Shown here: in pieces, positions 2,428 through 12,558 of the stretch
Layout of the letters: every line of letters begins with the position of its first letter
Numbering within the stretch: position 1 is the stretch's first letter
Sequence record: PV611058
Direction: 5' to 3' (one strand)
Length of the DNA: 64,000 nucleotides
DNA from: Escherichia phage WPEC3
Made by a program: the position numbers and the translations under genes
Notes under the pieces: generated by a model
What the model saw: the letters and a program-made list of their open reading frames with translations, nothing else
Database searches by the model: none
What the model was told of the DNA's origin: nothing

Positions 2428-2497
2428 CATAATGCCAGTACTCAGTACTGGCTTTTCTTTTTGGTTAAATATAGTATAATGAATAAAGGAGGGAATT
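2428..2497 (+). promoter_or_regulatory. Conserved terminator/leader cassette: hairpin gccagtactcagtactggc (2444-2462) + T-run, TATAAT (2475-2480), RBS aaggagg
   Basis: Perfect 8-bp stem plus T-tract = intrinsic terminator; the TATAAT-containing leader is near-identical upstream of 8 array genes. TATAAT lies only ~17 nt from the ATG, so promoter class (sigma70-like, middle or late) is unresolved. Confidence 0.6.
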
Positions 2498-3667
2498 ATG
2501 TTACCTTTTGCAAGAATGGTTAAGTACGGGAATATTGCACCTGTTCGCCCTGAAATAAAGAAATTGGATGGTAGTCAATCACATGTCGGATTACTATATA
2601 GTACTGGTAATATGTATATGCGTGGTTCTGGTTCGAACTACCAGTTAGGTACAGGTGATGCTAGTGATGTATTAGATGGTTGGGTACATGTACCCTATGA
2701 AGTTGATGATTTTTGGGCGTGTGTGTTCGGTACATTAATAAAGACTAAAGACAATAAGTTATATTGTGCAGGACTATCAATGGGTGGATATTTTGGTGCT
2801 AGTGGTTCATATGTTAACTGGACTGAAGTAACTTCATTATTTGTGGGTATTAACGTCTCACAAATAAAGAATATAGAATTTACATCAGCGAATACTTCCG
2901 GTAGTACACTAATATTGATGTTAGATGGTAGTTTATATGGGTTCGGCATGAACAGTAGATCAGAGTTAGGTGTTACAAACAAAGTCGTATCTCCTATTCT
3001 TATAGATACTGGGGTAAGTTCAATAGGAGCACATAAATTAGGTGGTTCATCGTTCCATTATATAAAAGACGGTAAGTACTACAGATGTGGAACATCGGTT
3101 GGTCGTAATATTGGGATTTCTTCTTTGACTACTTTTACTGAATTGAGTATTCCTGATAACGTTATATCTATGCAAATATTATATGACAACGTACAGTTAT
3201 TATGTTTAGGAAGTTCTGGATATAGTATCTATATGGCTGGTTCGAATAATTATGGTGGAAGAGGTGTTGATGGTAGTACTATTTACTCTACATTCAGGAA
3301 AATAGATCTTACTGGATTTGGTGTTGTTCCCAGTGAAATACTATTTGAAAATGCAGGGAATGGTTATGTTAATATATCAACTGATAGTACTGGCATATAT
3401 ACATGTGGTGGTGGTGCTGGTGTTAATGGTTTAGGTAGACCGAGTAATGTGATATCAAGTTCACAGTTGGGTTTGATTGAGTTCAGTACAGGATTATACC
3501 CAGCAAATATAAGTCGTGTATTTTCACAGAGTTCATCTTCTGTTATATATTGTATAGTTAATAATGAATTGTACTGGGCTGGGAGTAATTCATATTTTAC
3601 TGATCAAACTACAAATACTGGTACACAATTTTCATTTATTAAGATGAAGGATATGCCTTCTGCTTAG
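2498..3667 (+). CDS. RCC1-like beta-propeller repeat protein (array paralogue 3)
   Basis: 389 aa; MLPFARMVKYGN N-terminus; MRGSGSNYQLGTGDAS and other RCC1-type repeats. Confidence 0.8.
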   Translation: MLPFARMVKYGNIAPVRPEIKKLDGSQSHVGLLYSTGNMYMRGSGSNYQLGTGDASDVLDGWVHVPYEVDDFWACVFGTLIKTKDNKLYCAGLSMGGYFGASGSYVNWTEVTSLFVGINVSQIKNIEFTSANTSGSTLILMLDGSLYGFGMNSRSELGVTNKVVSPILIDTGVSSIGAHKLGGSSFHYIKDGKYYRCGTSVGRNIGISSLTTFTELSIPDNVISMQILYDNVQLLCLGSSGYSIYMAGSNNYGGRGVDGSTIYSTFRKIDLTGFGVVPSEILFENAGNGYVNISTDSTGIYTCGGGAGVNGLGRPSNVISSSQLGLIEFSTGLYPANISRVFSQSSSSVIYCIVNNELYWAGSNSYFTDQTTNTGTQFSFIKMKDMPSA

Positions 3668-3739
3668 ATTTTATGCCAGTACTCTGTACTGGCTTTTCTT
3701 TTTTTATTAAATATAGTATAATGAATAAAGGAGGAATAT
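3668..3739 (+). promoter_or_regulatory. Terminator/leader cassette (hairpin gccagtactctgtactggc 3675-3693)
   Basis: Same cassette architecture as 2428-2497. Confidence 0.6.
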
Positions 3740-4919
3740 ATGTTACCTTTTGTTAGATTATTTGATTATGGGAATATTGCCCCTGTCAAAGATACTGTTG
3801 TTAAAATTAATAGTGATGAAAATTCAATAAGCGTATTATACAGTGATGGGTCATTATATATGCGTGGACGGAAACCAATCAGCAAAAATGGGAGTTACTG
3901 GTTCATCTTTTTTGGATAGATGGGTTTTATGTCCTTATAGTGTTGATGATTTCTGGAGTTCTCTATATTGTACTATAATTAGAACAAAACAAGGGGAATT
4001 GTACTATAGTGGGACTAACTCAGTTTTTGGCATATCATCTTCGGTTTCAACATGGACTCGTTGTGAATCATATTTTGGATTTATTTCTCCGAGTTCAATA
4101 AAAGATATAAAAATAACATCATCAACCGGAACTAACAATTCCATGTTAATACTAACAAGTGACGGGCAGTTATATGGTATAGGCATGAATGGTGCAAGTG
4201 AATTGGGTACAGCAACTGCACCAATTACATCTCCACTCTTAATTGACACTAGTGTATCTGCAATTGCATCTAGTGAAATGAGCAGAAACTTTCACTATAT
4301 AAAAGATGGTATATATTATCGTTGTGGTGAGAATACTTTTTATCAATTAGGAACCGGTGATAATAAGCCTATTACTAGTTTTACTGCATTGAATCTTGGT
4401 AGTTCTCATGTAATTGCAGTACAAGCTACACGATGGGTAACACGTTTGATTGTTCAAAGTAGTACATCTGCTTTGTCTTTAATGGCGGCTGGTTGGAACA
4501 CACAGTTGACTATAGGTGGTTCTGAAAATACTGGTATAATAAGGTCATCATTTACTACCAATCCCTATACCGATATAACAGCAAATTCATTCGATAAACT
4601 TTCACCAGTATCCTATGTTAATGCAATAAAATCCAGTACTAACATTATTAATACGAATGGTAAGGGATATAATTCTAATGGTGCTGGTTTAGGCCGCAAC
4701 GCAGTCTCTGGGAATTATGGTTCAATATTACCAATAGAATTCTTTGATGATAGTGTTGACTTATCACATGTTGAGTGGTTTGGTACGATTGGTAATGGTT
4801 CAGTATCGGTAGTTAGTATAGGTGAGGATTTATACTGGACTGGAAACCCTGGGTATTTTACTGAACAAGGTGAGACTGGATATATATATAAATTCAAAAA
4901 GTGCGTTCCTTTTAGATAA
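3740..4919 (+). pseudogene. RCC1-like paralogue 4, disrupted by a +1 frameshift (N-terminal part 3740-3919, remainder in the +1 frame to 4919)
   Basis: Conserved start MLPFVRLFDYGN at 3740 terminates at TAG 3917-3919. The homologous continuation (GVTGSSFLDRWVLCPYSVDDFW..., matching paralogue 3) is in the +1 frame. The shift maps to 3869-3890, which contains an A5 run (3884-3888). Confidence 0.6.
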
Positions 4920-11128: not shown

Positions 11129-11138
11129 GGAGGAATAT

Positions 11139-12488
11139 ATGTTACCTTTTGTTAGATTATTTGATTATGGGAATACAGTAGATGTTCCAACTGTAAAGAA
11201 ATTCGACTCCATTGGTATGGGTCATGATAGGAATGGTGGTGGTAATTGGTTTGGTGCAATATTAGCATCAAATGGAAATTTATATGGTATTGGTCAAACA
11301 AAATATGTTTCTTTTGGTATAACACCAACCAATGGTACAGGAATTGAATTAGTACGAAAAAATGTAAACAATTTTTGGCTACTATCAAATGGAATAATAG
11401 TTAAAGATAATGATGGTTCATATCATTTTTGTGGTGTATATGCAAATGGAATATTCACACATTCAAGTATAACTACAGCACCTTTTATAACAAATGGTTT
11501 TATAAATGTATCTTCTTATTTTTCTAACGTAGGTGAAGTTGTGGAAATGGTATTCTGTGGTGGATATGATAAAGGTCCAGCAACATCATTAACCCCAGCA
11601 TACACTTCAAAATATAGTTGTATTTTGGCAGCATTGAACACTAATGGTGAAATCTGGTATATGGGTTTGTCGATTCAAGGTTTAATAAACAACTCCACAT
11701 CAGATTACTACTTTACTTCTTTTACTAAAGATAATCAATTGACACAAAAAGCAGTTTCATTAAGATGCACAATAGACATGTCACATAATAATGTGTATTT
11801 TGTTGGTAATAGACCTGTACTTTATGCCAAATTAGAAGATGGTACAATCGTAGGTAAGGGATATAATATACGATATGGTATACAAAAACCAGCTAGTACA
11901 AACCAAGTGATTAAAACGTGGACTACAGTGGCTGTAATCGGAACAGCAGATGATTTTGATGCAACAAACGAAGGCATGATGTACTGCTCAAATTCACAAC
12001 TATATCGCTGTGGTAATGGTGGTGGTTTTTCTTTCTGGAATGGTACAAGTAGTGTGTATTATATGGGCTACAACGTTGGTATGTTTCTAATCGGTGCAAA
12101 TGACGTCAACCGTGTAGCGGGTGGTTTTAACGTCCTAACTACAGGGATTAAAGATGATGTAGGTATAAATGTACCAACTTCATCCAGTACCAAAATACGA
12201 ATGAACTACTGTGGAACTGTAATTTTTGAACCCGGAACAACATCAATATATAAAGCACATGGTGTTTATAGTGATTACTATGCTAGTCCTTCATGGCAAG
12301 AGGGAGCAGTCGCTTCATTTACATATGAAGACATTGGTATTAAAATCAAAGATGCTATGTATGTTGGTGGTACTCTTGGGTTTACAACATATGGATTATT
12401 AGTGGTTAGTACTGAAGGTAAGGTATATTGGAGAGGTGTGTACAACGGTGTAACATATCAAACACTCACAGAAATACATTTGTTGTAA
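11139..12488 (+). CDS. RCC1-like repeat protein (array paralogue 10, divergent)
   Basis: 449 aa; MLPFVRLFDYGN N-terminus; follows paralogue 9 with only an RBS and no cassette; weaker repeat signatures. Confidence 0.65.
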   Translation: MLPFVRLFDYGNTVDVPTVKKFDSIGMGHDRNGGGNWFGAILASNGNLYGIGQTKYVSFGITPTNGTGIELVRKNVNNFWLLSNGIIVKDNDGSYHFCGVYANGIFTHSSITTAPFITNGFINVSSYFSNVGEVVEMVFCGGYDKGPATSLTPAYTSKYSCILAALNTNGEIWYMGLSIQGLINNSTSDYYFTSFTKDNQLTQKAVSLRCTIDMSHNNVYFVGNRPVLYAKLEDGTIVGKGYNIRYGIQKPASTNQVIKTWTTVAVIGTADDFDATNEGMMYCSNSQLYRCGNGGGFSFWNGTSSVYYMGYNVGMFLIGANDVNRVAGGFNVLTTGIKDDVGINVPTSSSTKIRMNYCGTVIFEPGTTSIYKAHGVYSDYYASPSWQEGAVASFTYEDIGIKIKDAMYVGGTLGFTTYGLLVVSTEGKVYWRGVYNGVTYQTLTEIHLL

Positions 12489-12558
12489 TATAATGCCAGT
12501 ACAGAGTACTGGCTTTTCTTTTTGATTAAATATAGTATAAAGAATAAAGGAGGGAATT
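12489..12558 (+). promoter_or_regulatory. Terminator/leader cassette (hairpin gccagtacagagtactggc 12495-12513)
   Basis: Same cassette architecture. Confidence 0.6.

Follow-up and report, generated by a model that had tools for sequence, protein, structure and literature searches.

A tandem array of RCC1-like genes with a common start

The region described here lies in a 64,000-nucleotide (nt) stretch of DNA from Escherichia phage WPEC3 (sequence record PV611058), which we refer to as the window. Its plus strand carries an array of 12 paralogous genes, mostly encoding seven-bladed RCC1-like propellers, that share the start ATGTTACCTTT, and between positions 2,428 and 12,558 many of these genes are separated by a repeated intergenic cassette. 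The cassette runs on into the codons for a shared 12-residue N-terminal peptide (hereafter, the tag), and cassette and tag together form the element considered in this work. The window aligns to Asteriusvirus jumbo coliphages (Ecwhy_1, PBECO4, 121Q, G17 and others) at 85–98% identity, with no relative covering more than 63% of it in a single piece, and to judge from these matches it comes from an Asteriusvirus jumbo coliphage of the PBECO4/121Q group.

Allowing at most one mismatch, the window contains 12 copies of the motif ATGTTACCTTTTG (chance expectation 0.2), each on the plus strand and at the start of an open reading frame; their positions are the start coordinates of the 12 array genes in Table 1. 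An earlier reading made from the letters alone (the sequence-only reading) had counted eight array genes, which is right for the genes preceded by a cassette but falls short of the 12 that make up the array in the window. Long runs of small opposite-strand genes flank the array, and database entries for its genes in relatives carry the labels 'regulator of chromosome condensation' or 'DNA condensation protein'.

A repeated intergenic cassette

Including the tag, the cassette is about 105 nt long and consists, in order, of a hairpin (GCCAGTAC-loop-GTACTGGC), a T-run, TTAAATAtagTATAAT and AAAGGAGG. The motif TTAAATATAGTATAA is present in eight exact copies, before array genes 3–9 and 11, and in a ninth, variant copy before array gene 12. 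The eight cassettes sit in intergenic gaps of 52–78 nt. Their number is that given by the sequence-only reading, whose hairpin and T-run are also present, though the stem had to be corrected to GCCAGTAC/GTACTGGC around a variable loop. Array genes 2 and 10 adjoin the preceding gene with a ribosome-binding site only and no cassette; array gene 12 has the putative promoter part and no hairpin.

Cassette statistics beyond the window come from 85 copies in nine phages, among which the columns conserved in at least 95% of copies are TAAATA, TA.TAA, ATGTTACCTTTT and AGA. No earlier description of the cassette or tag was found in the searchable literature, which remarks of these phages that they carry many RCC1-like genes. 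What comes nearest is an automatic 'repeat_region' feature without a label in the GenBank entry for UE-S1, together with the terminators that ARNOLD assigned in that of G17. A mobile element was also considered; no transposase is present, nor are there terminal inverted repeats except the terminator stem.

A shared N-terminal peptide on proteins of different folds

RCC1-like Pfam families are matched by nine of the ten intact array genes in the window, array gene 10 falling instead into PHROG 4219, the family of its paralogues. Scores for PF25390 (33–116 bits) stay below its gathering score of 150, and PF00415 and/or PF13540 reach gathering score in eight of the ten, array genes 8 and 12 included. 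An AlphaFold model of the array gene 8 product (mean predicted local distance difference test score, pLDDT, 91.6) aligns with UVR8, RPGR and RCC1 at template-modelling (TM) scores of 0.65–0.77 and about 18% identity; its residues 1–12 fall below a pLDDT of 50 and have no secondary structure. This comparison suggests that the array proteins share only the fold of RCC1 and that the 'DNA condensation' name was carried over from it, so that both database labels should be treated with caution as reflecting fold similarity alone. A role for the tag as the strand that closes the propeller was ruled out by its low pLDDT beside a confident propeller and by the presence of the same peptide on non-propeller proteins.

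The first 12 residues of all 12 array proteins follow the pattern M[LI]PFxR..Y[GA]N. The single-copy RCC1-like gp001 of Cronobacter phage GAP32 begins MLPFSRIIQYGNI, and in jumbo phages of Yersinia and Xanthomonas the start is retained as MLPFP..(V)..YGN. On a 361-kb metagenomic jumbo-phage contig, every gene of a 14-gene array starts MIPF[AVT][RK]..Y[GA]N, and the encoded folds comprise RCC1-like and Kelch propellers, Laminin_G_3, Gly_rich_2 and one unassigned protein; neighbouring genes of different folds in this phage share identical tag DNA. Tagged Kelch proteins also occur in Turkey5 and A4, and tagged gene 243 of 121Q has no assigned fold. The tag does not depend on protein fold and is old. 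Protein-level selection, which the sequence-only reading had played down, is thus given too little weight there. Because the peptide is kept where gene conversion cannot act, as in the single-copy GAP32 gene, as well as in other genera and on unrelated folds, selection on the peptide is primary, with recombination adding nucleotide-level identity within Asteriusvirus.

Several of these proteins have been found in phage particles. Mass spectrometry of the virion proteome of phAPEC6, itself an Asteriusvirus, detected eight array proteins (PMC7247149), and a check of their sequences places the tag at the N-terminus of all eight. GAP32 gp001 is likewise a virion protein by mass spectrometry (PMC5259590). 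Unexplained hair-like fibres are present on the head and tail of phAPEC6 (PMC7247149), 121Q and CBB.

A destination inside the particle has to be weighed against one on its surface. The tag could be a capsid-targeting signal, with the array proteins packed in the head as part of an inner body and perhaps ejected into the host. A short shared N-terminal peptide on unrelated proteins follows the logic of T4 capsid targeting, and the tagged proteins are of low abundance in virions. Moreover, phAPEC6 has an inner body, for which its authors proposed RCC1-like proteins as candidates (PMC7247149). However, neither a conserved Glu nor an (L/I)-x-E protease site is found in or after the tag, although the phage encodes a T4 gp21-like protease. 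RCC1, Kelch and laminin-G folds are typical of surface ligand binders, and the hair-like fibres are external and still unexplained. None of these objections is decisive, and we consider packing in the head unlikely. A targeting signal removed by the protease was rejected for lack of a conserved cleavage motif.

A terminator hairpin and a probable late promoter

The hairpin at the head of the cassette has the stem GCCAGTAC/GTACTGGC and a loop of 3–5 nt, with an imperfect right arm (GATACTGGC) in two copies and a compensatory stem change (GTCAGTAC/GTACTGAC) in the window copy at 6150–6177. RNA folds reach −12.4 and −14.5 kcal/mol (z = −4.3 and −6.7 relative to shuffles), and 73 of the 85 copies fold at −8 kcal/mol or below, the stem being kept and the loop free to vary. 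A terminator pattern scan lists all eight window hairpins, and the same hairpins were independently annotated as terminators by ARNOLD in the G17 GenBank record. Hairpin and T-run together thus have the features expected of an intrinsic (Rho-independent) terminator of the preceding gene.

The stem CAGTAC/GTACTG (for example at window positions 2434–2452) is also kept in the cassettes of other genera (loci L010 and L012), alongside a different loop, T-run and ribosome-binding site. The stems of other 121Q terminators are unrelated to it, and a fixed stem sequence is not needed for a generic terminator.

Downstream of the T-run, TAAATA is invariant in the window cassettes, stands 26 nt before the ATG and is at least 95% conserved in the 85 copies. 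TATAAT, which follows, is perfect in six of the eight cassettes, and its last T is replaced by C or A in three window copies. A sigma-70 −10 element depends most on this last T. Neither a −35 match at 16–18 nt spacing nor an extended −10 TG is present at the cassettes, and in a sigma-70 consensus scan sites were no commoner than chance in the region, with no cassette site among the matches listed.

Other features of the phage group point to late transcription. Gene 591 of the close relative 121Q, which lies outside the window, encodes a gp55-like late sigma factor (PHROG 12791, E = 2.7e-154, and PHROG 234). TAAATA stands within about 50 nt upstream of the ATG in 14 of 31 genes of the 121Q virion-gene region, and at −50 to −15 in only 4 of 66 opposite-strand genes of the window. 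The sole other TAAATA-N3-TATAA in the window lies 24 nt before the ATG of a plus-strand virion structural gene at 46788. A late motif, ATAAATA, has been predicted for the Rak2-like phages CBB and GAP32 (PMC5259590). Given the TAAATA core, the gp55-like sigma factor in 121Q and the position before virion genes, a T4-type late promoter in the cassette seems probable to us from motif and context. Its transcripts would have leaders of about 20 nt, and TATAAT is probably not a sigma-70 −10 element. The sequence-only reading had suggested an atypical promoter or very short leaders; no exotic promoter needs to be invoked, and the conserved TAAATA 26 nt upstream would imply a leader that is short, at about 20 nt.

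The same parts could be assigned differently, as a true promoter-early stem-loop (PeSL) cassette of the kind described in T4-like phages (Arbiol et al., 2010, PMC2839356; Comeau et al., 2014, PMC4122927). TATAAT would then be a sigma-70 −10 element, transcribed early by the unmodified host polymerase with very short leaders. The order of stem-loop, promoter and Shine-Dalgarno sequence matches that of PeSLs, the upstream T-run could serve as an UP-like element, TATAAT is a perfect −10 hexamer in six of eight cassettes, and TATAA is conserved (at least 95% over the 85 copies, and in other genera). Yet the −35, the extended −10 TG and any cassette site among the listed sigma-70 matches are all missing, and the key last T varies in functional-looking copies. 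Transcription starting 7 nt after TATAAT would land inside the Shine-Dalgarno sequence. Finally, the products are virion proteins, and their genes oppose the surrounding small-gene block, taken to be early. We therefore regard early transcription from a PeSL as quite improbable and retain the late promoter as the better assignment.

Nucleotide identity across the tag codons

Conservation of the tag extends to its codons. The 36 nt of the A-type tag (ARMVKYGN) are identical in five genes and those of the V-type are identical in array genes 5 and 6, array gene 4 differing at three positions (AGATTATTT versus AGAATGTTT); the identity of about 40 nt and the two subtypes described by the sequence-only reading are thereby recovered. 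In a codon alignment of the ten intact window paralogues, codons 1–12 have a mean pairwise identity of 84% at the nucleotide and 79% at the amino-acid level, and later 12-codon windows each reach 33–49% nucleotide identity, with an overall amino-acid identity of 21%. Where two paralogues have the same amino acid they use the same codon at a frequency of 0.84 in codons 1–12 versus 0.46 elsewhere, so the conservation of the 5' coding end exceeds the synonymous-site background against which the sequence-only reading had proposed to judge it. Leu2 is always TTA and Pro3 always CCT (100 of 100 units, nine phages). Gly11 is GGG in 82 of 95 units and never GGT, whereas Gly codons in the gene bodies are 11% GGG and 61% GGT (binomial probability 2e-19, one unit per body type).

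Such codon constancy might be imposed by a function of the RNA, such as initiation context or masking of the Shine-Dalgarno sequence, with no part for recombination. In the minimum-free-energy fold CCUUUU (codons 3–4) can indeed pair with AAGGAG, and the fixed CCT and TTA of the 100 Asteriusvirus units would fit a constraint of this sort. However, folds of leader plus tag are no stabler than shuffles (z = +0.43 and −0.02). In distant phages synonymous sites vary (Pro is CCA, CCG or CCT, and Gly is GGA, GGT or GGC), so the same peptide is encoded with other codons and no nucleotide is strictly required. An RNA-level constraint also leaves the shuffling of whole units, described below, unexplained, and we give it little credence beside exchange between copies.

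Whole-unit exchange at the cassette and tag

To compare arrays between genomes, 102 gene units were cut from the arrays of nine phages and their bodies clustered at a nucleotide identity of at least 80%, which gave 33 body types. Whole units have been inserted, lost, replaced or reordered between the arrays, and 20 of 29 body types are followed by more than one different successor. In megablast searches with a 16-kb window query against five relatives, homology blocks start at ATG−65 to −80, or at ATG−1 to −18 at junctions that lack a cassette or, once, do not align through it. Three blocks are truncated where the query stops; the others end at ATG+10 to +47 of a later gene, and none ends inside a gene body.

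Individual comparisons are consistent with this pattern. Where units are missing from Ecwhy_1 (array gene 3, and array genes 9 and 10 together), its single cassette aligns to both of the flanking window cassettes, which is the footprint of crossing-over between direct repeats. Array genes 1–2 are 96% identical to Turkey5 and 88% to Ecwhy_1, array genes 4–8 and the region from array gene 11 onward are 99% identical to Ecwhy_1, and the closest relative switches at unit junctions.

Tags and bodies have also become decoupled. Orthologous bodies carry different tags, with ARMVKYGN, ARMMNYGN, VRLFDYGN or VRMFDYGN on the body type found in all nine phages. Orthologues from different phages share an identity of 0.83 over tag nt 13–33, as against 0.80 between paralogues of one phage and 0.76 between non-orthologues of different phages, and the within-genome excess was reached in 0 of 2000 permutations. 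The hairpin mostly travels with the gene before it and the variable part of the tag mostly with the gene after it, and the middle is shared, a gradient that would be expected if crossovers are spread along the element. In EJP2 a different cassette variant has been homogenised over nearly all junctions. The block boundaries, whole-unit differences and tag–body decoupling bear out the cassette-mediated recombination and modular shuffling proposed by the sequence-only reading, and cassette and tag are, on comparison of these genomes, well supported as a recombination junction.

The window opens within the array, and at positions 1–106 the end of the gene that precedes array gene 1, with its tight junction (...GGGGCATTATTAAATTAAGGAGAGAAAT-ATG), recurs in Turkey5, CMSTMSU and EJP2 before different downstream bodies; exchange therefore also occurs at junctions without a cassette.

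That purifying selection on the peptide with codon bias, or recent tandem duplication, explains everything with no exchange between copies is hardly credible: the peptide is clearly selected, being kept in single-copy genes and across genera, but this view does not account for the rare GGG at Gly11 (82 of 95) where the common GGT never appears, for non-coding cassette parts that are equally identical, for bodies of about 21% amino-acid identity, whose duplications are therefore old, or for orthologous bodies with different tags in arrays that differ by whole element-bounded units.

A proposed composite element for expression, virion loading and exchange

Taken together, our analyses favour a reading in which a single element serves as terminator, late promoter, translation start, address tag and recombination junction, to which we assign a probability of roughly 0.6. 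The hairpin and T-run would end the upstream transcript, and TTAAATA would be read by host RNA polymerase carrying the phage gp55-like sigma factor. The predicted transcripts start in or near TATAAT, so that AAAGGAGG falls within their leader of about 20 nt. The flexible 12-residue peptide, lying outside the folded domain, would most likely dock the domain that follows it onto a shared virion site, for which the hair-like fibres on head and tail are candidates. Paralogues that elsewhere share about 40% identity have no long stretch of identity other than the element, and phage homologous recombination would therefore cross over there. Such crossovers would delete, insert, swap and reorder units, exchange tag subtypes and keep the copies alike through concerted evolution. 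We infer, besides the promoter class and the transcription start, that the tag docks to a partner on the virion, and that exchange continues today and brings a selective benefit instead of being incidental.

Several observations weigh against this reading or limit it. For transcription, no start-site mapping for any Asteriusvirus was found in the searchable literature. TATAA after TAAATA is itself at least 95% conserved, including in other genera, and a sigma-70 −10 element or a dual promoter keeps some probability. The main virion-gene region of 121Q uses plain TAAATA without N3-TATAA, so the array promoter may form a distinct subclass. Since the cassette is missing from two window junctions and from many in relatives, not every unit can need it to be expressed. 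Few peptides of the array proteins were covered by mass spectrometry, 1–5 for each. With respect to exchange, within-genome homogenisation of the tag is small (0.80 versus 0.76), and BLAST alignments extend into any conserved element, so that block ends in the cassette are partly built in; the absence of breakpoints inside gene bodies is the part that is not.

A more general possibility, which we hold only tentatively, is that the element is a plug-and-play adaptor to the virion proteome, such that any domain placed behind it is made late and loaded onto the particle. If so, Rak2-like jumbo phages would carry 8–17 swappable propeller or lectin modules per genome (at least 33 types in nine genomes), which may make up the hair-like fibres or sit at their tips. 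In that case the 12 residues would amount to a new and minimal signal for virion targeting, with uses in phage display, and might serve as a tool for decorating phage particles and identifying the fibres. The RCC1-like family, the largest paralogue family of Asteriusvirus, can now be hypothesised to consist of tagged, late-made, virion-loaded proteins. The putative regulatory parts of the element are ordinary in kind; the fold-independent tag on virion proteins is its most interesting and least understood part.

Feature coordinates, frame breaks and neighbouring genes

Coordinates of the array genes, cassettes and associated features are collected in Table 1.

Table 1. Features of the array region in window coordinates; cluster numbers refer to body types.
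Feature	Coordinates	Strand	Description
Array gene 1	107..1309	+	Tagged RCC1-like propeller, tag MLPFARMVKFGN, body cluster 16; tight junction with preceding array gene, ribosome-binding site only
Array gene 2	1318..2427	+	Tagged RCC1-like propeller, tag MLPFVRLFDYGN, cluster 01; no cassette, 8-nt junction, ribosome-binding site within upstream gene
Cassette 1 and tag	2428..2533	+	Hairpin 2434–2452, T-run, TAAATAtagTATAA 2466–2479, AAAGGAGG, ATG 2498, A-type codons 1–12
Array gene 3	2498..3667	+	RCC1-like, cluster 12; entire unit missing from Ecwhy_1
Cassette 2 and tag	3668..3775	+	Hairpin 3675–3693, TAAATA motif 3708–3721, ATG 3740, V-type
Array gene 4	3740..4919	+	RCC1-like, cluster 08; frame broken after codon 59 by T6 run
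Cassette 3 and tag	4920..5025	+	Hairpin 4924–4949, TAAATA motif 4959–4972, ATG 4990, V-type
Array gene 5	4990..6144	+	RCC1-like, cluster 13
Cassette 4 and tag	6145..6258	+	Hairpin 6150–6177, compensated stem GTCAGTAC/GTACTGAC, TAAATA motif 6191–6204, ATG 6223, V-type
Array gene 6	6223..7413	+	RCC1-like, cluster 00; orthologue in 9/9 arrays, four tag subtypes
Cassette 5 and tag	7414..7521	+	Hairpin 7421–7439, TAAATA motif 7455–7468, ATG 7486, A-type
Array gene 7	7486..8673	+	RCC1-like, cluster 04
Cassette 6 and tag	8660..8761	+	Hairpin 8662–8680 overlapping upstream stop codon, TAAATA motif 8695–8708, ATG 8726, A-type
Array gene 8	8726..9877	+	RCC1-like, cluster 02; AlphaFold model
Cassette 7 and tag	9878..9984	+	Hairpin 9884–9902, TAAATA motif 9917–9930 (TATAAC variant), ATG 9949, A-type
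Array gene 9	9949..11128	+	RCC1-like, cluster 07; +1 frame break at about 10720–10743, kept in four phages
Array gene 10	11139..12488	+	449 amino acids, tagged, cluster 17; no Pfam match, PHROG 4219; no cassette, 10-nt junction
Cassette 8 and tag	12489..12594	+	Hairpin 12495–12513, TAAATA motif 12527–12540 (TATAAA variant), ATG 12559, A-type
Array gene 11	12559..13695	+	RCC1-like, cluster 14
Putative terminator after gene 11, cassette type	13699..13723	+	GCCAGTAC/GTACTGGC and T-run; minus-strand gene next
Putative promoter-only variant and diverged tag	14424..14491	+	TTAAATAaagTATAAC, AAGGAG, tag MLPFVLLFDYGN of array gene 12
Array gene 12	14456..15580	+	RCC1-like, cluster 15
Putative array-closing terminator	15585..15611	+	Hairpin CCAGTAC...GTACTGG, after 15580

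Two array genes have interrupted frames. The break in array gene 4, near 3905–3919 beside the T6 run (TTTTTTGGATAG), is the same in Ecwhy_1 and PBECO4, and the Turkey5 orthologue (TTTTTTAATAG) is intact; either a site prone to slippage or a pseudogene common to these phages could explain the break. In array gene 9 the +1 break consists of an extra C before GGACAATTAGG and is the same in the window and in three other loci (L004, 14585–15775; L008, 15292–16482; L002, 8412–9602). The orthologues that share it belong to two pairs of phages, with about 84% identity between the pairs. Past the break, the window still differs from 121Q mostly at third positions of the +1 frame (18/16/39), and this downstream half of the gene therefore looks translated, so the break could be a programmed frameshift or mark a split gene. 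An orthologue of the upstream fragment (phAPEC6 gp007, 30 kDa) was detected in virions.

A minus-strand gene of 216 amino acids (13728–14378, PHROG 34359) lies between units 11 and 12 and occupies the same position in Ecwhy_1, 121Q, G17 and UE-S1. From 16000 to 64000 the minus strand of the window carries long tandem runs of genes of 100–150 amino acids, many of similar length and with start/stop overlaps; these have the look of additional paralogue families, as is typical of an early region. The virion structural gene at 46751–47945 (plus strand, PHROG 10468) is a lone plus-strand gene among these small opposite-strand genes.

Comparison with known systems

The putative promoter partly resembles the T4 late promoter (TATAAATA, recognised by gp55) in having an AT-rich, −10-like element that ends in TAAATA and lacks a −35. 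As with T4 late promoters and the CBB–GAP32 motif, it stands 16–40 nt before the start codons of virion genes in a phage group with a gp55-like sigma factor. It differs in that the cassette TTAAATA matches TATAAATA at six of eight positions and in its extra conserved TATAA(T) 3–4 nt downstream, which is absent from the main virion-gene promoters.

The tag invites comparison with two protein-level systems. In multi-tailspike phages such as CBA120 and G7C, receptor-binding proteins combine a conserved N-terminal anchor with a variable C-terminal domain. The likeness lies in a conserved N-terminus that attaches swappable binding domains to one virion site, as we propose for the tag, and in exchange between genes at the boundary of the two parts. 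However, known anchors are folded and span about 100 residues or more, whereas the tag has 12 residues and is predicted to be disordered; there are 8–17 tagged genes per genome, and the attached domains are propellers and lectin folds rather than trimeric fibres or spikes.

The second is provided by the T4 internal proteins (IPI-III and Alt), unrelated proteins that have in common an N-terminal capsid-targeting sequence of about ten residues. Similarly, the tag is a short N-terminal peptide shared by members of at least four Pfam families and by proteins without an assignment, and tagged proteins are present in virions. It differs from the T4 sequence in that no (L/I)-x-E cleavage motif follows it, and a location inside the head is only hypothetical here.

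The closest parallel to the element as a whole is the PeSL. Each is a composite intergenic motif running from stop to start, in which a terminator stem-loop is combined with a promoter and a Shine-Dalgarno sequence, a layout common to the eight window copies and to the 85 from nine phages. Each recurs in many copies within a plastic part of the genome, and in both cases the ends of insertions, deletions and replacements fall in the motifs, fitting homologous recombination between copies. In PeSLs, such recombination between neighbours also gives rise to mini-circles. PeSLs, however, have strong sigma-70 early promoters (−35, −10 and an AT-rich upstream region) and flank unrelated ORFans, whereas the cassette has a TAAATA core without a −35 and flanks paralogous virion-associated proteins. 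In the cassette, moreover, the hairpin is always upstream of the putative promoter, and the conserved block extends 36 nt into the coding region as a peptide tag. By analogy, we thus view the element as a late-gene, tag-carrying variant of the PeSL principle rather than as a PeSL. Cassette-mediated shuffling, described for early ORFans of T4-like phages, would on this comparison extend to late virion genes of a distant jumbo-phage clade.

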